Positions 31,584 to 44,325 of a stretch of 64,000 nt of DNA are shown here, piece after piece. The position numbers and the translations under genes were made by a program. Origin of the DNA: a virus; UHGV virus genome UHGV-0132465; one strand, written 5' to 3'. The first letter of the stretch is position 1. Every line of letters begins with the position of its first letter. The notes below the pieces were generated by a model that saw only the letters and a program-made list of their open reading frames with translations, was not told the origin of the DNA and made no database searches.

Positions 31584-31832
31584 ATATTTTACCTGGCCGG
31601 ATATTTTAAAATCCTTAGAAAATCAGAAAATGGATCGAAAACTAAAATGGATTTTTCAAGACAGGCGCGATAAGATGTGCTGCTCATTCTATCGTTCGCA
31701 CCGTACTTTAAGTCACTATTCCAGATTTTCCGCACATACTCTCACCCTTCTACCAGAACTTTCCCAGCTTACCTCTGACCTTTTATAACAATAAGTCCAT
31801 TATTATCAGAAAGTTTCGGCACATCTCTCTCG

Positions 31833-32010
31833 GTACTCGATCTGTTTTTCATTTCAAAGACCTGATTTTCTGAAAATTTTTCTCGATAAATTTCTTAGTA
31901 CTCGATCTGTTTTTCGTTTTCTGAATCAGATTTTCTGGAAATCGTTCCGGCGCTCGACCTAAAATTTTTGGGGACGAAATCGATTTTTCGTTTTCAGAAA
32001 TGGATTTTTA
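31833..32010. repeat. three spaced direct repeats (GTACTCGATCTGTTTTTC and derivative) with adjacent AT-rich tract
   Basis: exact 18-bp repeat at 31833 and 31898, degenerate third copy near 31980, about 65-bp periodicity, in an ORF-free 600-bp region. Confidence 0.6.
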
Positions 32011-32161
32011 AAATTTATATATGGGAATATTTTATTGGATATTGTTTTATAGGAAATTGTTACGGAGGGTAATTAGCATGCTAATTAAATTTATTAAATG
32101 CGAGGAGTTCTCATTTAGAATTTTGAATGATAATCATTCTCGTTTGCAGAATAACGGGCAC

Positions 32162-33468: not shown

Positions 33469-33497
33469 TTGACACGCTGCAAAATTCAAGTAAACTA
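33469..33497 (+). promoter_or_regulatory. sigma70-like promoter (TTGACA, -10 TAAACT)
   Basis: consensus -35; -10 resembles the one inside the 45-bp repeated element. Confidence 0.5.
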
Positions 33498-33506
33498 ATC
33501 ACAAAA

Positions 33507-33525
33507 GGCGGGAAACATTCCCGCC
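33507..33525 (+). promoter_or_regulatory. 5'-UTR stem-loop GGCGGGAAACATTCCCGCC
   Basis: perfect 7-bp GC stem between promoter and RBS; near-identical copy at 36060. Confidence 0.6.
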
Positions 33526-33544
33526 AACACAAAGGAAAAAGATC

Positions 33545-33949
33545 ATGAATAAGAACGTACGCCGCATCATGAACGAGCTGGCAAACGATGAAAAAATTAT
33601 TGACATGCATTTGATCAACATTTGCCGCCGTTGTGTAACATATAACAACCGCGCCGCAAAAGCGCGTGAGATGAACGCAAAAGGCACCTTAAAGCCCTTC
33701 CAGGTGGTGGTAAAGGCCATTAAAGATGTAACTAATACGGCAAACCAGGTACAGGGGAACACCAACGAGAGTACCAGTATTGATCCGGCTTACATCATGA
33801 AACGGATCCGGACCTGCAAGAACAAAGAGCAAGTGTATAACGTCATAGACTGGTTGGATTCCATGGGCGACGTGGTGTACAATAGGTTTTCTGCAGCTAT
33901 CGAGATCCAGCTTGACAGGTTGGACGGGAAAGTACTGAAAACTTACTAA
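33545..33949 (+). CDS. hypothetical protein (134 aa)
   Basis: ORF with AAAGGAAAAAG RBS. Confidence 0.5.
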   Translation: MNKNVRRIMNELANDEKIIDMHLINICRRCVTYNNRAAKAREMNAKGTLKPFQVVVKAIKDVTNTANQVQGNTNESTSIDPAYIMKRIRTCKNKEQVYNVIDWLDSMGDVVYNRFSAAIEIQLDRLDGKVLKTY

Positions 33950-33951
33950 GT

Positions 33952-33996
33952 TTATTTTTAGATGGCCTTGACTCCAGGGCCATCAATAAAGTAAAC
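33952..33996 (+). repeat. 45-bp conserved intergenic element, copy 1 (TTATTTTTAGATGGCCTTGAYTCCAGGGCCATCAATAAAGTAAA)
   Basis: contains inverted repeat GATGGCC/GGCCATC and promoter-like TTGAYT ... TAAACT; copies at 34582 and 38318. Confidence 0.7.
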
Positions 33997-34029
33997 TAAT
34001 CTCAGTTAAGCGAAAAAGGGGGCTTTAAG

Positions 34030-34149
34030 ATGAGCACTACACGCCAATACACAAAGGTAACTATTATCGTTTGCGTTGTCGGTTACATCCTGGCGCAAAT
34101 GTTAATGAGTAGCGCTAACAGTTTTGCAAAATTTTTCTTAAATTTTTAA
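34030..34149 (+). CDS. small hydrophobic peptide (39 aa)
   Basis: RBS-preceded ATG; predicted single transmembrane segment; below ORF-track cutoff. Confidence 0.35.
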   Translation: MSTTRQYTKVTIIVCVVGYILAQMLMSSANSFAKFFLNF

Positions 34150-34176
34150 TTGACAAGCTAACTTAGATTGATATAC
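34149..34176 (+). promoter_or_regulatory. sigma70-like promoter (TTGACA-16-TATACT)
   Basis: consensus hexamers upstream of 34229. Confidence 0.55.
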
Positions 34177-34228
34177 TTAAACACGTAAACGGGAAAACTT
34201 CCCAGAACACACAAAAGGAGAAAACATT

Positions 34229-34579
34229 ATGAATACTTCCATCACTATGACCGCCGAAGAAAAAGCCCTGCAGATCGCCGCTCTGAAAAAACAGATTGCA
34301 GAACTTGAAGACAAGATCGACAATTTTGAAATCGACGAAGACAAATACGACGATAAATATGATGAATGGCTAGACGAAATCTATGGCGAAATTATGATCG
34401 GTTGTATCTCTTTTCTTCCGTCGCATATCCTCAAAGAGCTAGATCCTATCGCTTACCGCTGTGGCTTTAGTGATTATATTGATAGCCTAGATATTGAAGA
34501 TGACGAAGACTATCAGGAATTGCAAGCGGAGCTTGAAGAAGTGAAAGAAGAGCTTGCAGAACTGGAAGAAAACGAGTAA
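34229..34579 (+). CDS. acidic hypothetical protein (116 aa)
   Basis: ORF with AAGGAGAAAA RBS; Asp/Glu-rich. Confidence 0.5.
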   Translation: MNTSITMTAEEKALQIAALKKQIAELEDKIDNFEIDEDKYDDKYDEWLDEIYGEIMIGCISFLPSHILKELDPIAYRCGFSDYIDSLDIEDDEDYQELQAELEEVKEELAELEENE

Positions 34580-34581
34580 GC

Positions 34582-34626
34582 TTATTTTTAGATGGCCTTG
34601 ATTCCAGGGCCATCAATAAAGTAAAC
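34582..34626 (+). repeat. 45-bp conserved intergenic element, copy 2
   Basis: near-identical to 33952-33996. Confidence 0.7.
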
Positions 34627-34668
34627 TTTACACTGTTAACACTGAACTAATACAGAGGAGTTAAAACC

Positions 34669-34914
34669 ATGGCCGCACTAATTACCAAATATTATGCCCC
34701 TACCAACACCAAAAGCGCCCGTATCATGGTAAAAGGCTTCGGACGTAAAAAGGTTTACACCTGGGATTATTCCCTAGACATGGAAGACAACTACACCAAC
34801 GCAATGACCGATTTTATTAATGATCTGAATAAACAGATCTTGACCGACTACAAAGTGACCGATATTGCCTACGTCGGGGAAGGCGGGATCTGTTTTGTAG
34901 GCATTGTGAAATAG
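34669..34914 (+). CDS. hypothetical protein (81 aa)
   Basis: ORF with GAGGAG RBS. Confidence 0.5.
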   Translation: MAALITKYYAPTNTKSARIMVKGFGRKKVYTWDYSLDMEDNYTNAMTDFINDLNKQILTDYKVTDIAYVGEGGICFVGIVK

Positions 34915-34989
34915 TTATTTTTTCGGTGGTCCTGGCTGCAGGGCCATCTATAAAGATAATTTATTAACACCATGAAAGGAGAAAGTAAC

Positions 34990-35343
34990 ATGATCAGCGG
35001 TGCAAGTTTTATCATTGGCGCTATTGCTACGGCTTTAATTGTAAACAAGATCCAATCCAAAAACGAAAAAGAGAGCAACGCCTTTACAGAATACCCATTT
35101 TGGGTATTCAACGACAACGAAGACTATATAATCAAGTACAAGGATGAGAAGGGCGACCAGGTAACACCACGACCGATCCCGGCTTACAAGATGCAAGAAA
35201 CACTATACCGCCTAAAGGCTGGAGGCGCAAAAATCGTAGACTTTTGGGGATATGATTGCAAGGATCAGGAGGTTATAAAACGGCGTATCCGTGCGATTCA
35301 GGCAAATATTGAAATCAGTAAAGGGGGAAGTTATGAAAATTAA
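34990..35343 (+). CDS. hypothetical membrane protein (about 117 aa)
   Basis: start at ATG after AAAGGAG; N-terminal hydrophobic segment. Confidence 0.5.
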   Translation: MISGASFIIGAIATALIVNKIQSKNEKESNAFTEYPFWVFNDNEDYIIKYKDEKGDQVTPRPIPAYKMQETLYRLKAGGAKIVDFWGYDCKDQEVIKRRIRAIQANIEISKGGSYEN

Positions 35344-35530
35344 TTTCGAAAAAATTGTAAAGCGCCCTCATGATTCCGAAGAGTTGCCGAAACGCCGCCA
35401 GCGTAACAATAAACTGAATAAGCCAAAAAGGTTTGGGAAGATCTGGCGGAATCACTATGATCGCAAATTACCGGGCCTGCTTTTGGAACGTGAACGACAG
35501 GCAGAACGATACCGCCATAAAGACAAATAA
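35333..35530 (+). CDS. small basic protein (65 aa)
   Basis: ATG after AAGGGGGAAG RBS; Arg/Lys-rich. Confidence 0.45.
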   Translation: MKINFEKIVKRPHDSEELPKRRQRNNKLNKPKRFGKIWRNHYDRKLPGLLLERERQAERYRHKDK

Positions 35531-35538
35531 CAACCAAC

Positions 35539-35566
35539 GCCCCGCCATTGTGCGGGGCTTTTTATT
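35539..35566 (+). terminator. intrinsic terminator (GCCCCGC-CATTGT-GCGGGGC + T-run)
   Basis: 7-bp GC stem followed by TTTTTA. Confidence 0.65.
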
Positions 35567-35711
35567 TCTATCCCGCCGATAGCGCCCCTGGTTGGCCCCA
35601 CAAGCCCCCTAAAAGCCCCTACCTATGCAATCCCCTTTCTTAACCTGAAAACAGCGCCCAGGGCCGTTTTATGGCGTTAAAAATATTATTGACAGTGATT
35701 TTATTTAAAGC

Positions 35712-35739
35712 TTGACATCTTAAACAGGTTAGATATACT
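35712..35739 (+). promoter_or_regulatory. sigma70-like promoter (TTGACA-16-TATACT)
   Basis: consensus hexamers upstream of 35772. Confidence 0.55.
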
Positions 35740-35771
35740 AACCACATCAAAGAGAGAAAGGAGTAAACGCC

Positions 35772-36032
35772 ATGCGTAAATTAAAAAATTTTGATAAGGT
35801 TGATGTTGTCCTGAATAATTTTTACTACTGCAACAACAAGGCCATTTGGTGGCGTGATAGTTCCACCGATAAAGTCAAGGCGCGCTTTCTCCAGGGGCAC
35901 TGGCAAGGCCGCCCAGTGATTAAAATCATGGGGCAATTGGCAGCGTTTAAAAATTGCCGCCGTGTTGATGACGTTGAAGAGATTTTAAACATTTTGCGCC
36001 ACAATAATTTAAAAAATAGCGTTGACAAGTAA
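35772..36032 (+). CDS. hypothetical protein (86 aa)
   Basis: ORF with AAAGGAG RBS. Confidence 0.5.
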   Translation: MRKLKNFDKVDVVLNNFYYCNNKAIWWRDSSTDKVKARFLQGHWQGRPVIKIMGQLAAFKNCRRVDDVEEILNILRHNNLKNSVDK

Positions 36033-36049
36033 ATCTAGATAAGTATACT
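36022..36049 (+). promoter_or_regulatory. sigma70-like promoter (TTGACA-16-TATACT)
   Basis: consensus hexamers upstream of 36107. Confidence 0.55.
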
Positions 36050-36059
36050 TAAACACACA

Positions 36060-36078
36060 GGCGGGAAAACTTCCCGCC
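36060..36078 (+). promoter_or_regulatory. 5'-UTR stem-loop GGCGGGAAAACTTCCCGCC
   Basis: perfect 7-bp GC stem about 10 nt after the -10 element; paralogous to 33507. Confidence 0.6.
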
Positions 36079-36106
36079 ACTAACAAAGAAAATAGGAGAA
36101 AATATC

Positions 36107-36730
36107 ATGACCACCGTTAACATTACCACAGGTTACAATTTATCTTTCGACGTGCTGACCGATGAACAAAAAGAAAAAGCTATTGAAATGGTCCGCGAAA
36201 GAGAAGAACACAGCGGGGATAACTTTTTTGCAGAAAGTGTAATTGAAGACTATAAAGAATATATCTTTCCAGAGTATGGCCTTGAAGATACCAAGGTACA
36301 TTGGTCCGGCTTTTGGTGCCAGGGTGACGGCGCGTCAATCAGTGCGGAAAACGTGGATTTAGAAAAATTCTTGCGTAAAGTCAAGTCTCTGACTAAATTC
36401 CGCTCAATTCGTCACTTGTTCGGCACAATGCACGATGGCGAGCTATCCGCAAGTGTTGAGCGTGATCCATATAGCCGCTATAGTCACGAAAACACTGTAA
36501 GCGGGTACATCGATACTACATGGCTAGACCTGACAGCCAAGCAAGAAAGTAAGGTTGAAGAGCTGGAAGAGTTGATCACCGAGACGGTGCGGGAGCTATC
36601 CCGCAAGGTTTACGTAGACCTGGAGCAAGCTTATCTTGAACAATTTACTACCGAAAACCTGATCGGCCTTATCGAGGCCAATGATTGGCGGTTTGATGTG
36701 GATGAATATGGCGAGATGACTTTTTCATAA
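36107..36730 (+). CDS. hypothetical protein (207 aa)
   Basis: ORF with AGGAGAAAA RBS. Confidence 0.55.
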   Translation: MTTVNITTGYNLSFDVLTDEQKEKAIEMVREREEHSGDNFFAESVIEDYKEYIFPEYGLEDTKVHWSGFWCQGDGASISAENVDLEKFLRKVKSLTKFRSIRHLFGTMHDGELSASVERDPYSRYSHENTVSGYIDTTWLDLTAKQESKVEELEELITETVRELSRKVYVDLEQAYLEQFTTENLIGLIEANDWRFDVDEYGEMTFS

Positions 36731-36818
36731 ATAAAGTGTTGCAATAACCTAAAAACCTGCTATATTAAAACTCAAGGGGCAAGACGTTTGCCCCACACAA
36801 AACAAAGAGGAAAACATT

Positions 36819-37199
36819 ATGAAAAGCACCACTAAAGCCATTGACACCGTTATGTTTAACCTGGTTACCTTTCGTGAGGATATGAAAGATCTTCCACGTG
36901 AAACAGTGTGCGATCACATCGAAAACTATCGCAAACTGATCAAACAACTGCCTTTAAAACGTGACCAATATGCGGCTAACGCTATGCTTAACGCCATGAT
37001 CAAAAAGATGATCCAGTGTGATTTAACTCTGGCCTATGATTATGCAGGCGGTCGTTTTGCAGTATACAATCAGCCCGTGCCCGGTATGAGCACCACTGAA
37101 GAATTGCACGCGTTAAATCTAAAACAAGATGTATGGGATAGCATGCCCCGCGTGGTGGTGTGGGCAGAAAGCGGAAAGATTTACGGCGATAATTTTTAA
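36819..37199 (+). CDS. hypothetical protein (126 aa)
   Basis: ORF with AAGAGGAAAA RBS; upstream UTR hairpin GGGGCAAGACGTTTGCCCC. Confidence 0.5.
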   Translation: MKSTTKAIDTVMFNLVTFREDMKDLPRETVCDHIENYRKLIKQLPLKRDQYAANAMLNAMIKKMIQCDLTLAYDYAGGRFAVYNQPVPGMSTTEELHALNLKQDVWDSMPRVVVWAESGKIYGDNF

Positions 37200-37266
37200 T
37201 CAGGTAACAGGCGGCGGCATATTTGCCGCCTTATTGTTAAGCAGAATTGTAAGAGAGGTACACAGA

Positions 37267-37638
37267 ATGGAATTTATTATTTTGGCTGTATTAGTTGCCT
37301 TGTTCAACGCCTGGATAGCTGGCAAAACAGGTAGATCCGCTTTTCTATGGTTTGTTATATCTATTTTCCTGGGAGTGGTTGCAACCATTGTATTAGTTAT
37401 CCTTGCAATTGTTGACAAGGATAATAATAAGAAAGGTAAAGTATTTTCCGACCTGTATGACGCTCAAACTTTTGTTAACGCCTATTATAGTGATCTTCCG
37501 GTCTCCTTGCGCTGCAGCCTAGCGCAACAAGTTTTCGATGAAGCTAAAACCAGAGAACAGGCCCATGAAATATGTCTAACCGAGGCAGATCGCCTATTCG
37601 AGAGGAATAGAAAATATGTGGACCAGCCGTTTAAATAA
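37267..37638 (+). CDS. hypothetical membrane protein (123 aa)
   Basis: start at ATG after GAGAGG; two predicted transmembrane segments. Confidence 0.5.
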   Translation: MEFIILAVLVALFNAWIAGKTGRSAFLWFVISIFLGVVATIVLVILAIVDKDNNKKGKVFSDLYDAQTFVNAYYSDLPVSLRCSLAQQVFDEAKTREQAHEICLTEADRLFERNRKYVDQPFK

Positions 37639-38113
37639 TGCCACGTTAATTAATCCCTTTAGTGAAGATTTGAAGCCAGCGGCCTGGCGTGAGGGATTCA
37701 ACACAGAAAGATTTATTTTCAGGCCTGACCTTGAGGAATTTTATAACAATGGATCGAACAACGACAGAGATAATTTTTCTTGTAATGTGCGTGGTGATAA
37801 TACTCCTGGGGGCCATTACAAACCACGTCACTGCTAACAGGAGGAAAGGGGGAGACGATGACAACCAAGGATAAGCCCCGCACCGATAAGGTGCGCCGTG
37901 TTATGGTATGGCTTGAGATCATCGCCCTTGAAATATTGTTAGGCGTAGGGATGTACTTTATCGCTGTAAGTAACTGATAACGGCCCCCAATCCCTGGGGG
38001 CTTAACTTTTTCAAAAATTTTTCTTCTAGGGTGTTGCAATCCGGTCCGGAATATGGATAATAACAATCAACGGGGAGCAATCCCCACCACAAAGACTAGA
38101 AAGGAGAAACAAA

Positions 38114-38314
38114 ATGAGTAACAATATCCGCGTTATTAACTTCAAAAAAGAAGAAAAAATTGCCGTGCTGATTGACGGTCAAGAAATCTTTAAAGGTGAT
38201 TATGAAGATCATCAAACGGCGATTAGTATCACTCGCGTGATTGGTTACCATAATTTTTACCCTCAAGGCGCTGAGGCAGCAGTAAAACGAATTAAAGAGA
38301 TTGTAGGCCTGTAA
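38114..38314 (+). CDS. hypothetical protein (66 aa)
   Basis: ORF with AAAGGAGAAA RBS; upstream UTR hairpin GGGGAGCAATCCCC. Confidence 0.5.
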   Translation: MSNNIRVINFKKEEKIAVLIDGQEIFKGDYEDHQTAISITRVIGYHNFYPQGAEAAVKRIKEIVGL

Positions 38315-38317
38315 AAT

Positions 38318-38361
38318 TTATTTTTAGATGGCCTTGATTCCAGGGCCATCAATAAAGTAAA
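38318..38361 (+). repeat. 45-bp conserved intergenic element, copy 3
   Basis: near-identical to 33952-33996. Confidence 0.7.
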
Positions 38362-38399
38362 TTTAAACCCTGTTAAAATAATCAGTGCAAAAAGGAGTA

Positions 38400-38717
38400 A
38401 TGATCATGTTTATCCAGGCTAATAATCTTTATTTCTTTGATGGTCAGATCGTAGACGGCGTGGAGGTGGAAATCACTGGGTGCCCTGGCGGTCAGGTTAT
38501 GACTTTTCGGAATAATGCCTTTGATGATTCTCATATCGTTATGAGAATGGAAGTTAGTAAGCTGGATGATAAGAAAACATTGATTGACTATTCCGTCAAA
38601 GATCATCCAGACTACCACATGATCTATGGTGATTTGTGCATTGTTGACCGTGACAAGGTGAACGGCATTGTTATAGCCATTGTGAACGATGTTTTCTCTG
38701 AGTATTCCGGCAAATGA
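38400..38717 (+). CDS. hypothetical protein (about 105 aa)
   Basis: ATG after AAAGGAG; exact start (38400 or 38406) uncertain. Confidence 0.5.
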   Translation: MIMFIQANNLYFFDGQIVDGVEVEITGCPGGQVMTFRNNAFDDSHIVMRMEVSKLDDKKTLIDYSVKDHPDYHMIYGDLCIVDRDKVNGIVIAIVNDVFSEYSGK

Positions 38718-38928
38718 TGCAAAATAAGGCCCCTGGCAGGGCCTGCAGCGATATAATCACATAAAGGCTATGCGGTTGCATGGCCTTTATTATTTTAGCG
38801 TTACAGCTGCCCCCAAGGCGCTTAAAAAATTTTTAAAGAAGTACTTGCATCAAGCCCCACAATATGGATAATAAGAGTTGTCGAGGGGGCTATGCCTCCA
38901 ATCATTAACAGAAACAGGAGTTAAAACT

Positions 38929-39213
38929 ATGGCTATTGTTACCGCTGGCGATGTAGTAGAAATGGAAGCAAAATACTTAAAAGCGGGTATGCATATCCTA
39001 CGGAATGATCAAGAGTTATTATTAACGATGGTCGACTATAATCCCGGCCAGGATTATCCAAGCATCGACTACTTTTTTGAGTATGTTGATGAAGAGTTGA
39101 AAGAGGATGAGGCCTATTGCGGTGAGTTCTGCAACTTCTTTTGTCCTGATGAGGTTGTAAAGGTTATTTATCAACCTGGCGTAGCTTTCCCGCTGCACGC
39201 TATCAATAAATAA
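38929..39213 (+). CDS. hypothetical protein (94 aa)
   Basis: start at ATG after ACAGGAG RBS. Confidence 0.5.
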   Translation: MAIVTAGDVVEMEAKYLKAGMHILRNDQELLLTMVDYNPGQDYPSIDYFFEYVDEELKEDEAYCGEFCNFFCPDEVVKVIYQPGVAFPLHAINK

Positions 39214-39268
39214 ACCTGGCGGGGCCGAAAAGGCCCCCAATTATGAAAATAAAGATAGGTTAATCATC

Positions 39269-39502
39269 ATGATGGAACAAATTAAACGCGCCGAGGCTAT
39301 TAATGGCAATGTGATCTATTCTGTCAGCAAAAACGAAAAAGGCGTACCATATGCGGCGGTAATAGTACAGCCTGACGGCGATTATTGGCTTACTGTGTAC
39401 GGCGCGTATTCTTTCGGTCGTCCAGTGCATGATAAAATTTTGAAAGTAGCTAACCCTACGGGGAAGAATATCACGGCAGAAAAATTTTTTGAAAATAATT
39501 GA
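39269..39502 (+). CDS. hypothetical protein (77 aa)
   Basis: ORF in co-oriented block. Confidence 0.45.
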   Translation: MMEQIKRAEAINGNVIYSVSKNEKGVPYAAVIVQPDGDYWLTVYGAYSFGRPVHDKILKVANPTGKNITAEKFFENN

Positions 39503-39574
39503 CATGACCGCCTGAAAGTGTAGTATATAAATCAAAGGGCAAGCCCCGCCAACCACAAAGAGGATAAAAAAATC

Positions 39575-39754
39575 ATGGCTATTATTGCAAAGACCGAGAT
39601 TGCAGGTTTAGATTCTATTCTCCTGGCATATGAGGAAGCTATAGAAATGTATGTGGTTTCCTATGGTGAGTATATCCGTGAATATACATCTATTGATCTG
39701 GCTTTTGAATGTTATATCCGCCAGGTAAATAAAGCATATGATGATTATCGTTAA
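39575..39754 (+). CDS. small protein (59 aa)
   Basis: own TTGACA promoter, UTR hairpin and AGAGGA RBS; below ORF-track cutoff. Confidence 0.4.
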   Translation: MAIIAKTEIAGLDSILLAYEEAIEMYVVSYGEYIREYTSIDLAFECYIRQVNKAYDDYR

Positions 39755-39845
39755 AATAGTTTGACAACAAACAACTATCTAACAAAGCATAATACATAAG
39801 GTGGTAGAATGATCCGCCACCTGGAACAAAGAAGAGGTAAACACC

Positions 39846-40091
39846 ATGAAAAGCAATAAAGGTTATAACGGTCACAAAAACAAAACTCATTGGAATGTAA
39901 GCCTTTGGATTAATAACGATGAATCATTATACTTATACGCTGTAGGCTTAATAAATGAGTGCGGCAATAAAGATAAAGCGGCGGATCTAATGTGCTACAG
40001 ATTAAAACAGGACGGAATCACTCATACACCTGATGGTTTCAAGTATAGTAAAACTGCAATCCGTGCCGCTATGGTAGGAATGAAACACTAA
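39846..40091 (+). CDS. hypothetical protein (81 aa)
   Basis: ORF with AGAGG RBS; upstream UTR hairpin. Confidence 0.5.
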   Translation: MKSNKGYNGHKNKTHWNVSLWINNDESLYLYAVGLINECGNKDKAADLMCYRLKQDGITHTPDGFKYSKTAIRAAMVGMKH

Positions 40092-40165
40092 AAGCACATA
40101 GCCGCCTTACCCTGGGGCTGTGGTAGCGGCCCCATGAATAAGGTTACTAACAAAGAATAGAAAAC

Positions 40166-40270
40166 ATGAAACAGAAATTAATTGATGCGGTAATCCTGGT
40201 TATTGCCCTGGGTATTGGCCTGATTGCAACCATGGCTAATATGATCTTGTCTTCCAACGGTATCGGATAA
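40166..40270 (+). CDS. small hydrophobic peptide (34 aa)
   Basis: RBS-like purine tract; predicted single transmembrane helix. Confidence 0.3.
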   Translation: MKQKLIDAVILVIALGIGLIATMANMILSSNGIG

Positions 40271-40279
40271 GGTGGGCAA

Positions 40280-40495
40280 ATGATCACCAACAAAACAGGC
40301 AAAACAGAATTTTTACGCAACTTGCAGATCGGCAAGCCCGAGATCTGGTATTGCACTAAAACACCACGTGACGAAATGAAAGACTTCACCGCCACGCTGC
40401 AACGGGTAAAGATATCTATCACGCAGAAAAAAGCCTTGATAGTGGTTGAAGGTGAGATCCCTCAAGCCGTTGTTATAATTGAGCGTACAGCATAG
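40280..40495 (+). CDS. hypothetical protein (71 aa)
   Basis: ATG after AAGGTGGG RBS. Confidence 0.45.
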   Translation: MITNKTGKTEFLRNLQIGKPEIWYCTKTPRDEMKDFTATLQRVKISITQKKALIVVEGEIPQAVVIIERTA

Positions 40496-40586
40496 TTTAA
40501 TTTATACAGATACCCGAAAATTAACCAACAAAGCATAAACAGGCGGTTACCGCCGCCTTAAACGTAGCAGAAAGAGGATAGACAAC

Positions 40587-40871
40587 ATGAAAAAGATGAT
40601 CGCAGTGGTTGCCCTGGTTGTTGGACTTAATGCGCCTGTAATGGCTAAAGAGCTGGCAAAAGAGGTTGATCTAACGGATATCCATGCCGTCAATCAAATC
40701 GGGGTTACTTATCGCTTATGCCTTGCCGCTAAAACTTTTAATGACGGTACAACAGAGTACTACGGATTCGAGGGTATCCGGTGCGGTGAGCTTGCTCGCG
40801 ACCTTAAGGAAGATCCAGACCTGGAGGATCTGCCCATCACCGTAAACGGTAAAGCTTACGTAAACCGTTAA
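40587..40871 (+). CDS. secreted hypothetical protein (94 aa)
   Basis: signal-peptide-like N terminus MKKMIAVVALVVGLNAPVMA; AGAGGA RBS. Confidence 0.5.
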   Translation: MKKMIAVVALVVGLNAPVMAKELAKEVDLTDIHAVNQIGVTYRLCLAAKTFNDGTTEYYGFEGIRCGELARDLKEDPDLEDLPITVNGKAYVNR

Positions 40872-40873
40872 CC

Positions 40874-41008
40874 ATGAGAAAGATGATCATCACCTTGGGG
40901 ATTGTGGCGGGATTGCTGGCGCTCTTTCCCCTTATGGTTAGGTATGTGCTGATCAGTGTTGTCCTGGTAGTCAGCGATCTAATGTTATATATTAACTCAT
41001 TGTTTTAG
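40874..41008 (+). CDS. small hydrophobic peptide (44 aa)
   Basis: immediately follows upstream stop; two hydrophobic stretches. Confidence 0.3.
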   Translation: MRKMIITLGIVAGLLALFPLMVRYVLISVVLVVSDLMLYINSLF

Positions 41009-41016
41009 GTGGAATA

Positions 41017-41208
41017 ATGACAGCAGAAGAAGTTAAAAAAGTACTGGCAGTACTACGTTACCATAATCATTGTAAGGTGAAGAATGATCCTGATTATCTC
41101 GATTCATCCCTTGAAGAGGATACACTACAAGCCATAAGTAACATGCAAGAATTGCTAAAGCGCATGACAGAGAAAAACCGACCGGACTACATAGGCGAAA
41201 AAATATAA
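41017..41208 (+). CDS. hypothetical protein (63 aa)
   Basis: ATG after AGGTGGAA RBS. Confidence 0.45.
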   Translation: MTAEEVKKVLAVLRYHNHCKVKNDPDYLDSSLEEDTLQAISNMQELLKRMTEKNRPDYIGEKI

Positions 41209-41419
41209 TCCTTATTGACTAGAAAACAGGGCTTGCAATGGTCCTGTTTTTTGTTATACTTATTCCACGGCAGGCACCTGGCGACGGGGGGAGACAATCA
41301 CCGGGCCTGCCTGTCATATAAGAACTATAAAAACCGTTGACATCTGCCAGGGGGTGGGGTAACATTTATCTTGAAGGGGCAAAAGTGCCCACACAACAAC
41401 CAGAAGAGAGGAAAACATT

Positions 41420-44268: not shown

Positions 44269-44325
44269 GTATGAAACCCTCTTCAGGCAAGGTGTGTATT
44301 ATGGTATGAAACCCTCTTCAGGCAA
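44269..44325. repeat. exact 22-bp direct repeat GTATGAAACCCTCTTCAGGCAA x2, 35 bp apart
   Basis: perfect duplication; flanked by related G-rich motifs at 44226-44250 and 44371-44396. Confidence 0.7.

Follow-up and report, generated by a model that had tools for sequence, protein, structure and literature searches.

Introduction

Repeated intergenic cassettes that combine a promoter with a stem-loop have been described in T4-like phages, where promoter-early stem-loop (PeSL) elements occur as near-identical copies in hyperplastic genome regions (PMC2839356, PMC4122927). A PeSL comprises an upstream stop codon within an A/T-rich tract, σ70-like promoter boxes, a stem-loop, and a Shine-Dalgarno sequence with a start codon, and recombination between copies deletes or inserts open reading frames (ORFs), leaving chimeric elements and mini-circles (PMC2839356, PMC4122927). 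The stem-loops lowered expression of a downstream lacZ gene in T4-like phages, and the authors speculated on a specific recombination protein (PMC2839356). Here, we analyze a 47-nt repeated element in a 64,000-nt stretch of the virus genome UHGV-0132465 (referred to as the window), which represents an rV5-like phage of E. coli (Vequintavirus). The element lies in the early small-gene region of this phage and is interpreted, with moderate confidence, as a composite PeSL-like regulatory cassette.

Two further classes of hairpins are relevant for comparison. Repetitive extragenic palindromic (REP) sequences and other intercistronic stabilizer hairpins, such as that between malE and malF, are transcribed and repeated imperfect palindromes located 3′ of a stop codon inside an operon. 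A hairpin of this type could shield the upstream message from 3′ exonucleases and thereby set differential expression. The second class is represented by the RNase III processing signals of phage T7, which form an irregular helix of ~20-22 bp (length rule from PMC1540722). Pertzev and Nicholson determined the features recognized by RNase III on the minimal substrate uR1.1, in which a helix of 11 positions extends from the cleavage site to the loop (PMC1540722). Its proximal box covers positions 1-4, counted from pb4, which is closest to the cleavage site, to pb1 at position 4; the middle box comes next, and the distal box, with U.G followed by U-A, adjoins the loop-closing pair from below (PMC1540722). 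The optimal proximal box of uR1.1 has G-C at pb1, A-U or U-A at pb2, A-U at pb3, and A-U or U-A at pb4, and the optimal distal box consists of U-A and U.G.

Four copies of the element are located between small early genes

The original prediction had listed near-identical 45-nt strings that start at 33952, 34582, and 38318, each following a stop codon. All three are present and cannot be attributed to chance: the + strand contains their 24-nt core GATGGCCTTGAYTCCAGGGCCATC at 33961, 34591, and 38327 without any mismatch, and no match is expected according to 100 dinucleotide-preserving shuffles. The complete element of 47 nt is found on the + strand in four intergenic copies, three of them near-identical and one diverged. 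Copy 1 (33949-33997, loop ACUC) starts at the last base of the stop codon of gene 33545-33949 (TAA, 33947-33949). Copy 2 (34579-34627, loop AUUC) is located directly 3′ of the stop codon of gene 34229-34579 (TAA, 34577-34579), and copy 3 (38315-38363, loop AUUC) 3′ of that of gene 38114-38314 (TAA, 38312-38314). The diverged copy 4 (34913-34961, 5′ arm GGUGGUCCUG, loop GCUG) is found at the stop codon of gene 34669-34914 (TAG, 34912-34914). Adjacency to stop codons was correctly recognized, as was the existence of a degenerate relative; the position given for the latter, 34927, is internal to the copy and not its start.

A profile hidden Markov model derived from the three main copies detected the diverged copy at 34919-34962 (E = 6e-6) and no further match in the 64 kb. 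Likewise, a covariance model applied to the whole window with filters off returned the same four copies only, at 74-83 bits (copy 1, 82.8; copy 2, 81.6; copy 3, 80.2; copy 4, 73.8). Based on direct-repeat analysis, the similarity between copies spans ~63 nt, and the sequence outside is unrelated. The four copies are interspersed among six small ORFs, and the distance from the end of a copy to the next start codon is 22-45 nt in all cases.

The 6 kb around the element are 92-95% identical to those of ~120 rV5-like phages, including rV5 (DQ832317) and Phage 203, and belong to a rightward early block of small hypothetical genes (rV5 ORFs 164-238). According to the rV5 genome paper, this early region forms one transcription unit with many σ70-type promoters, and rV5-like phages depend on the host polymerase. 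The genome papers of rV5 and Certrevirus do not mention the element, and the rV5 record carries no annotation at its positions.

Searching the genome and related phages, as had been suggested, placed the element in this genus. With a 66-nt query covering copy 2, we obtained three sites per genome in essentially all ~120 rV5-like phages and one further site in KKE7M, a phi92-like phage (Justusliebigvirus) that belongs to another subfamily. Each complete genome harbors 3+1 copies, all inside one 4.4-kb stretch and at the same places in the ~120 relatives. A blastn search in distant mode with a 2-kb region retrieved only Vequintavirus sequences (86-95% identity). In IMG/VR, an exact pattern of the 3′ half matched three loci (L006, L009, and L010) on two rV5-like contigs, two of the loci being from one contig, together with 12 chance matches, all in coding DNA. 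A flank-anchored metagenome pattern that allowed other upper-stem sequences yielded, among the matches listed, only copies with the same stem beside A/T-rich chance matches, and thereby no additional covariation. A recent local duplication, offered originally as the simplest explanation should transcript ends, protein binding, and conservation in relatives all be lacking, is refuted by the unrelated flanks and by ~120 genomes of 86-95% identity in which the positions of the copies are the same.

The + strand RNA fold is conserved among copies and genomes

As + strand RNA, every copy folds into a bipartite hairpin that consists of a lower stem of 10-11 A-U pairs, an internal loop of 2x3 nt, an upper stem of 10 pairs, and a tetraloop. 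The upper stem is formed by GAUGGCCUUG/CAGGGCCAUC and contains one U.G pair below the 4-nt loop. In copy 1, the lower stem pairs 33949-33958 with 33988-33997 and the upper stem pairs 33961-33970 with 33975-33984. What had been described as a 7-bp inverted repeat is in fact this 10-bp stem with its 4-nt loop, extended by a second A-U stem of 10 bp.

The fold energies are -25.0 kcal/mol for copy 1 (z = -7.5), -21.1 for copy 2, -23.6 for copy 3, and -22.4 for copy 4, with z-scores of -5 to -7.5 over the four copies. Ranked by stability among all 56-nt + strand windows of the 64 kb, the elements reach the 3rd (copy 1), 9th, and 16th place at a G+C content of just 29-38%. The - strand folds more poorly than the + strand, and in case of copy 4 it reaches only -8.1 kcal/mol. 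The most stable 56-nt + strand fold of the window is found at 40095-40150 (-25.3 kcal/mol), within a segment (39861-40152) that is missing from rV5 and Gotham.

For a comparative analysis, we extracted the region first from 15 additional genomes or contigs and then from another three, and aligned 56 + strand instances (38 distinct) from 17 sources. Standard pairs occupy 98.3% of the 760 pair cells; shifting the 3′ partners by 1-3 columns lowers this value to 33-57%. In the upper stem, pairing amounts to 99.7%, and variation affects five pairs, on one side only and to or from G.U, except for one unpaired cell. Four pairs of the lower stem vary on both sides (U-A/A-U/G.U/G-C; A-U/U-A; U-A/C-G; G-C/A-U/G.U). 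In the lower stem, mismatches are limited to the two outermost pairs that vary, and both stems are 97-100% paired. All four informative transitions of the upper stem (A20G, C24U, C33U, and A40G) give G.U pairs on the + strand and A.C on the - strand.

The diverged copy provides additional evidence. Relative to the main copies, it carries three changes in the 5′ arm that all keep the pair (A-U to G.U, C-G to U.G, and U.G to C-G), and in the lower stem one A-U and the adjacent U-A pair are swapped on both sides. It has retained every pair although the -35-like box is lost, and it is kept in 15 of 15 genomes sampled. Across genomes, it shows compensatory variation of its own (C-G vs U-A; G.U, A-U, or G-C). 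At the DNA level, its palindrome is broken, as seen by comparing the 5′ arm GGTGGTCCTG with the reverse complement of the 3′ arm, GATGGCCCTG. Since this copy preserves the hairpin without a -35 box in 15 genomes, the function of the hairpin seems to be independent of the promoter. Statistically, the covariation is modest, given few events among closely related phages, but it is consistent and points to a structure of the RNA (or of the + strand) rather than to a palindrome of duplex DNA.

Conservation had been claimed to far exceed that of the flanking genes. This holds true between paralogous copies, the flanks of which are unrelated. Between orthologues, the difference is only moderate, with 14-22% variable sites in the element vs 24-39% in the 200-nt flanks (10-15 genomes), and the variation within the element is found mostly in the loop and at the stem end. 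Taken together, these data indicate that the element is very probably a + strand RNA hairpin under selection.

The hairpin differs from terminators and resembles T7 RNase III signals

There is no U tract 3′ of either stem on either strand, and at most three U follow the full hairpin. The subsequent sequence is AAUAAAGUAAA on the + strand and CUAAAAAUAA on the - strand, and the element is T-rich on its 5′ side and A-rich on its 3′ side, the opposite of a terminator. A terminator scan that called terminators at 35539, 37209, and 42597 did not call the element. The terminator annotation of phage Alma marks those same terminators as well as hairpins in 5′ untranslated regions (5′ UTRs) and leaves the element unmarked. 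On these sequence grounds, we rejected an intrinsic terminator as unlikely. A search of the window against Rfam, including ToxI-type phage RNAs, gave nothing at gathering score; SurC, snoZ194, and rhtB appeared as sub-threshold chance matches over copy 3.

In contrast, the dimensions of the element agree with those of RNase III signals. Folding of T7 R0.3, R0.5, R1, R1.1, and R1.3 resulted in upper stems of 9-13 bp with loops of 3-5 nt. The upper stem of the element has the dimensions of R0.5, R1.1, and R1.3, and R1.1 shows exactly the same combination of a 10-bp upper stem and a tetraloop. With 10 bp, a 2x3 loop, another 10 bp, and the tetraloop, the element has the size and shape of an RNase III substrate. 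The likeness extends to the setting, since the T7 signals are near-identical hairpins at intercistronic junctions of early transcripts made by the host polymerase, as predicted for the element, and they, too, are often next to or overlap promoters. Both also share the asymmetric internal loop and the lower stem beneath the 10-bp upper stem. By sequence, the two are not homologous, and the lower stem of the element is a regular 10-bp A-U helix.

When the element is aligned with uR1.1, the distal box below the loop-closing pair contains the canonical U-A at db1 and the stringently required U.G at db2. In the proximal box, pb2 is an A-U pair of the required type, pb1 (U-A) and pb3 (G-C) are non-consensus, and pb4 corresponds to an A.A in the internal loop, with no G-C present. 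By analogy to T7 R1.1 (CCUUUAU/GAUU), the predicted scissile bond is CAAU/AAAG on the 3′ side of the internal loop of the + strand RNA, that is, 33987/33988, 34617/34618, 38353/38354, and 34951/34952 in copies 1 to 4, respectively. Among the functions originally put forward, an RNA processing site is the best supported option, considering the strand-specific structure, the G.U-preserving changes on the + strand, and the R1.1-like dimensions and distal box.

Promoter-like boxes and a natural insertion in phage KKE7M

An arrangement of TTGAYT and TAAACT had been noted as promoter-like. It is found with a spacer of 18 nt in copies 1 and 2; copy 3 differs in having TAAATT. The respective σ70-like boxes on the + strand are TTGACT/TAAACT (33968-33997, 9/12 matches) in copy 1, TTGATT/TAAACT (34598-34627) in copy 2, and TTGATT/TAAATT (38334-38363) in copy 3. 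The diverged copy lacks a -35 and has CTGGCT or CTGGTA at that place. Boxes and hairpin are superimposed: TTGAYN lies in the top of the stem and the loop, the 3′ arm acts as the 18-nt spacer, and TAAAYT is part of the 3′ arm of the lower stem. In phage Gotham, PhagePromoter called a promoter in copies 2 and 3 that covers exactly the 30 nt spanned by TTGACT and TAAAYT. Moreover, the -10 of copy 1 and the sequence downstream of it (AAGTAAACTAATC) are almost identical to those of the consensus-like early promoter at 33469-33496 and close to those at 34150 and 36022. Of the proposed dedicated promoter class, the promoter is thus supported as well, but as one of the ordinary σ70 type that is related to the neighboring early promoters, and not as a special class.

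Early promoters of this region are composed of an A/T-rich tract, TTGACA, a spacer of 16-17 nt, and TATACT or TAAACT. They are often followed ~10 nt downstream by a G+C hairpin in the 5′ UTR (e.g., GGCGGGAAAACTTCCCGCC) and then by CACAAAGAGGA and the start codon. These 5′ hairpins look like stabilizers of mRNA 5′ ends. Promoter and 5′-UTR hairpin constitute a second repeated cassette, which is present at 33469-33525, 34150-34205, 36022-36078, 36739-36794, 39499-39550, and 41337-41385 of the window and at 552-612 and 871-931 of the region from phage muut (L153), an architecture common to Vequintavirus and Justusliebigvirus.

The first of these cassettes (33469-33525, + strand, TTGACA-16-TAAACT) is predicted to drive gene 33545-33949, and its transcripts should therefore read into copy 1. 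Similarly placed + strand promoters precede copy 2 (34150-34177) and copy 3 (38034-38061), and the terminator scan revealed no terminator-like sites between the upstream promoters and the elements. From this arrangement, we infer read-through into the elements. The genes 5′ of the elements have a canonical promoter (33469, 34150, and 38034), and the genes 3′ of them lack one of their own.

KKE7M offers a natural experiment, which is the strongest evidence on the promoter side. In its close relative muut (Justusliebigvirus), gene 136 is preceded by a plain promoter (TTGACA-16-TAAACT), 11 nt, a 5′-UTR hairpin, and a ribosome-binding site. In KKE7M, a module is inserted within that promoter. The left junction is at the end of the spacer, after which the sequence of the window promoter 34150 follows from its -10 onward (GATATACT), and the second repeated cassette is the source of this left-hand homology. 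The right junction is inside AGTAAA of the element, where the muut sequence resumes (ATATTCATTAAGG). Hence, the insert starts at the -10 of one promoter, includes its 5′-UTR hairpin as well as the 116-aa gene, and ends with the -10-like hexamer of the element, and copy 2 is the 3′ boundary of the cassette common to the window and KKE7M. As a result, TAAATT of the element is located 11 nt before the 5′-UTR hairpin of KKE7M, the exact place of the genuine -10 in muut. Judged from these alignments, the element is promoter-equivalent in geometry and homology. As to whether its promoter is active, which we infer from the boxes and this junction, we consider both answers equally probable.

Copies of the element act as recombination substrates

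Since the copies are near-identical direct repeats, they can recombine, and there is hardly any doubt that they do so. Four genomes (IMG/VR contig L009, magaca, ECP26, and phiWec189) show an exact 630-bp deletion between copies 1 and 2, and the junction is a single chimeric element, flanked upstream as copy 1 and downstream as copy 2. The cassette concerned (33998-34578, + strand) is present or absent among relatives and contains a 39-aa gene (34030-34149), the strong promoter TTGACA-16-TATACT (34150-34177), a 5′-UTR hairpin (~34190-34205), and the 116-aa gene (34229-34579).

Furthermore, loop variants are alike between copies within a genome and different between genomes. Copies 2 and 3 have the same loop in the window (ATTC), in rV5 (ACTT), and in MiataMamis (ACAC), and copies 1 and 2 have a common loop in APCEc02 (ACTT) as well as in Alma and V18 (both ACAC). 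This sharing within genomes argues for gene conversion between copies up to 3.7 kb apart. The recombination role, like the lower stem and the transfer to another phage subfamily, had been missed in the original prediction. Other insertions or deletions (indels) of the region are away from the element, at ~32438/32638, 35684-35694, 38698/38717, and 39860/40153.

Comparison with PeSL cassettes and other hairpins

The element shares most of its features with the PeSLs of T4-like phages. In both cases, near-identical short repeats separate small, non-essential early ORFs of a plastic region, a stop codon within an A/T-rich tract is found upstream, and a Shine-Dalgarno sequence and start codon follow 20-45 nt downstream. 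σ70-like -35 and -10 boxes, which in the element score 8-10 of 12 and lack the -35 in the diverged copy, have a stem-loop between or overlapping them, and the stem includes G-T pairs. ORF cassettes are lost or gained through recombination between copies, which leaves a chimeric element, and exchange occurs between different phages. Based on this feature-by-feature fit in another phage family, we classified the element as a cassette of the PeSL kind; it is an extension of this known kind and not a new principle or mechanism.

A number of differences remain. The carrier is an rV5-like myovirus (Vequintavirus) instead of a T4-like phage, and it has four copies within 4.4 kb instead of dozens. The stem-loop is not terminator-like and has neither a U tract nor a polyG/polyC run. 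It is bipartite, with a second, covarying A-U helix that joins the upstream T-tract to the -10 region, giving a helix of ~22 bp. The promoter boxes, the function of which is predicted from sequence, are weaker and have an 18-nt spacer. The mode of action, processing or stabilization and not termination, is the part that may differ from the PeSLs. REP hairpins, in turn, resemble the element as repeated, imperfect palindromes 3′ of a stop codon, but they have an unrelated sequence, and the element differs from them in being phage-borne, in having promoter-like boxes, and in lacking an associated RAYT transposase.

Discussion

According to the explanation that we favor, the host σ70 RNA polymerase would start at the strong upstream early promoters and read through the upstream gene into the element. 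The transcript would fold into the 47-nt bipartite hairpin, and this RNA fold would be the feature under selection. The hairpin most likely acts post-transcriptionally, either as a T7-type RNase III processing signal or as a 3′-end stabilizer, and not as an intrinsic terminator. The predicted cut in the internal loop (CAAU/AAAG) would cap the upstream message with the upper hairpin and uncouple the downstream cistron. In addition, the A/T-rich tract, TTGAYN, the 18-nt spacer, and TAAAYT probably provide the downstream gene with a modest σ70 promoter. The copies also serve as recombination linkers, through which gene cassettes are deleted, inserted, and exported.

Several observations weigh against this proposal. 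The upper stem lacks any double compensatory change, and the sequences represent one genus and one transfer, so that the covariation rests on few independent events. The proximal box departs from the uR1.1 optimum at two of four positions (pb1 is U-A instead of G-C, pb3 is G-C instead of A-U), and the diverged copy has C-G at db2 and G.U at pb2. Due to these deviations, reactivity with RNase III could be low. We consider it somewhat less probable than not that this enzyme is the acting nuclease. In the literature, we found no transcriptome or end-mapping study of rV5-like phages. The promoter boxes match at 8-10 of 12 positions, the 18-nt spacer is suboptimal, and ~35 sites of similar score are expected by chance in this 14-kb stretch.

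The same applies to the role of the copies in genome plasticity. Only one of ~5 indel sites in the 10-kb region is located at the element, which is therefore not the main driver of plasticity. The viable evolved line rV5_ev146 (L152) is without copies 1 and 3; it lacks two blocks of ~0.5 kb and 5.8 kb (corresponding to 33538-34042 and 35480-41296 of the window), the end points of which are away from the element, and it shows that much of the region is dispensable. In Gotham, copy 1 (2439-2495 of L002) has lost the 3′ arm of the upper stem through a deletion of 8 nt (…TTGACTCCAATCAATAAAG…), and both the hairpin and the -35/-10 spacing are gone in this single genome. Considering these deletions and the other indels, the element is one recombination substrate among several and is not essential.

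The most serious alternative is a function of the DNA only. Here, the copies would be special σ70 promoters with the -35 and the spacer under a palindromic operator (GATGGCC-N10-GGCCATC), by which a dimeric repressor of phage or host switches the three downstream genes jointly, and the RNA fold would be incidental. Operators commonly have such a layout, with a palindrome of 24 bp that covers the -35, and the promoter-like boxes, the A/T-rich upstream tract, and the gene-proximal position are all typical of promoters. The PhagePromoter call of the same 30 nt in Gotham, the KKE7M junction with its interchangeable TAAAYT and real -10, and the downstream genes without canonical promoters fit as well. 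An operator of this type, one of the functions proposed originally, is nevertheless disfavored by the diverged copy, in which the palindrome is broken at 2-3 positions of one half-site and the -35 is lost, while 10/10 and 10/10 RNA pairs are kept in 15/15 genomes. In addition, the informative transitions are all G.U-compatible on the + strand only, the U.G pairs of the main copies correspond to A.C mismatches on the - strand, and the lower stem covaries, for which an operator has no need. We therefore regard this explanation as unlikely. Still less probable is an intrinsic terminator or attenuator as proposed for canonical PeSLs, which would reduce read-through and make the downstream gene dependent on the promoter of the element. 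The position straight after a stop codon is typical for terminators, the PeSL stem-loops did cut downstream lacZ expression in T4-like phages (PMC2839356), and in the window there is even a true terminator hairpin, the loop of which includes a -35 (41220-41260). However, the upper stem is followed by AAUAAAGUAAA, and with the U-rich tract on the 5′ side the order is the wrong way round on either strand; neither the terminator scan nor the Alma annotation calls the element.

A neutral repeat, that is, a recombination scar or linker spread with cassettes and homogenized by gene conversion without any role in expression, would account for the concerted evolution of the loop variants, for the deletion and transfer events, and for the loss of copies 1 and 3 in rV5_ev146 and the decay of copy 1 in Gotham. 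It does not explain why the diverged copy, too different for conversion, still keeps its fold by wobble and compensatory changes, why variation is concentrated in the loop and at the stem end while both stems remain 97-100% paired, and why, from genome to genome, the flanks vary more than the element. We rate it a shade below the terminator. Finally, the element could be the site of a dedicated phage protein that binds RNA or single-stranded DNA (a translational or stability regulator, or a recombinase acting as the integron integrase does on attC), with RNase III uninvolved. In favor of this view, the sequence of the upper stem is near-invariant over ~120 genomes, beyond the needs of pairing and with no other stem among the matches listed, a mobile cassette has the element at its 3′ end, and the PeSL authors speculated along the same lines on a recombination protein. 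On the other hand, no protein could be named as a candidate, plain homologous recombination in shared promoter/-10 sequence and within the repeat accounts for the junctions, and the other indels of the region are without the element. This possibility ranks lowest and is highly improbable. Hairpin promoters of the N4 type and single-stranded DNA promoters of the Frpo type were set aside on general knowledge, given a -35 that is single-stranded in the loop and the reported dependence on the host polymerase.

If the composite PeSL-like cassette is correct, the idea of promoter/stem-loop cassettes that regulate early genes and link modules would extend beyond T4-like phages to the rV5-like phages, a group in wide use for therapy and biocontrol. 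KKE7M represents a clean natural example, with a promoter-gene-hairpin unit inside the promoter of a phi92-like phage and both junctions resolved to a few bases. The proposal predicts RNase III-dependent ends at CAAU/AAAG and a weak promoter firing ~7 nt after TAAAYT, and confirmation would bear on how rV5-like phages set the relative expression of their many early genes. For annotation purposes, the 47-nt motif should not simply be labelled a promoter, as is done by PhagePromoter. A far-reaching variant, to which we give very little credence, is that the hairpin is a "cassette-end" module read in its folded form by a specific phage factor, either an RNA-binding regulator or an attC-like hairpin recombinase. 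We keep it in mind because the sequence of the upper stem is invariant beyond pairing needs and because the element is the 3′ end of a cassette that crossed subfamilies. Such a factor would define mRNA ends and move promoter-gene-hairpin cassettes between subfamilies (Vequintavirinae to Stephanstirmvirinae).

Further observations in the region

A second, different composite of stem-loop and promoter is present in the same genome at 41220-41260. This terminator-like hairpin has 14 pairs followed by TTTTTTG and a -35-like TTGCAA in its loop, and an extended -10 (TGTTATACT) comes straight after the T run.

Two other repeats were found in the window. At 31823-32008, upstream of the gene at 32127, there are three copies of a ~47-nt repeat that are 72% identical and spaced by 65-74 nt; this stretch has no convincing ORFs and is possibly the "non-coding" block of the rV5 paper. 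A perfect 22-nt direct repeat (GTATGAAACCCTCTTCAGGCAA) is located at 44269-44290 and 44304-44325, 35 nt from start to start.

Using tblastn with the 81-aa product of the gene between copies 2 and 4 (34669-34914), we obtained homologues in unrelated phages only, with 35-46% identity, none of them suited to a comparison of the element. They are encoded by Seuratvirus-like siphoviruses (CAjan, slur01), Pseudomonas KIL-like myoviruses, and 40-kb T7-like phages of Klebsiella, a distribution from which this gene can be recognized as a widely shuffled early gene.

Among the GenBank records MG065635-MG065690, 17 entries designated "Campylobacter phage" (host Campylobacter jejuni) are 88-93% identical in this region to rV5-like phages of E. 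coli. Their host assignment looks doubtful, and the records may be contaminants or mislabelled.

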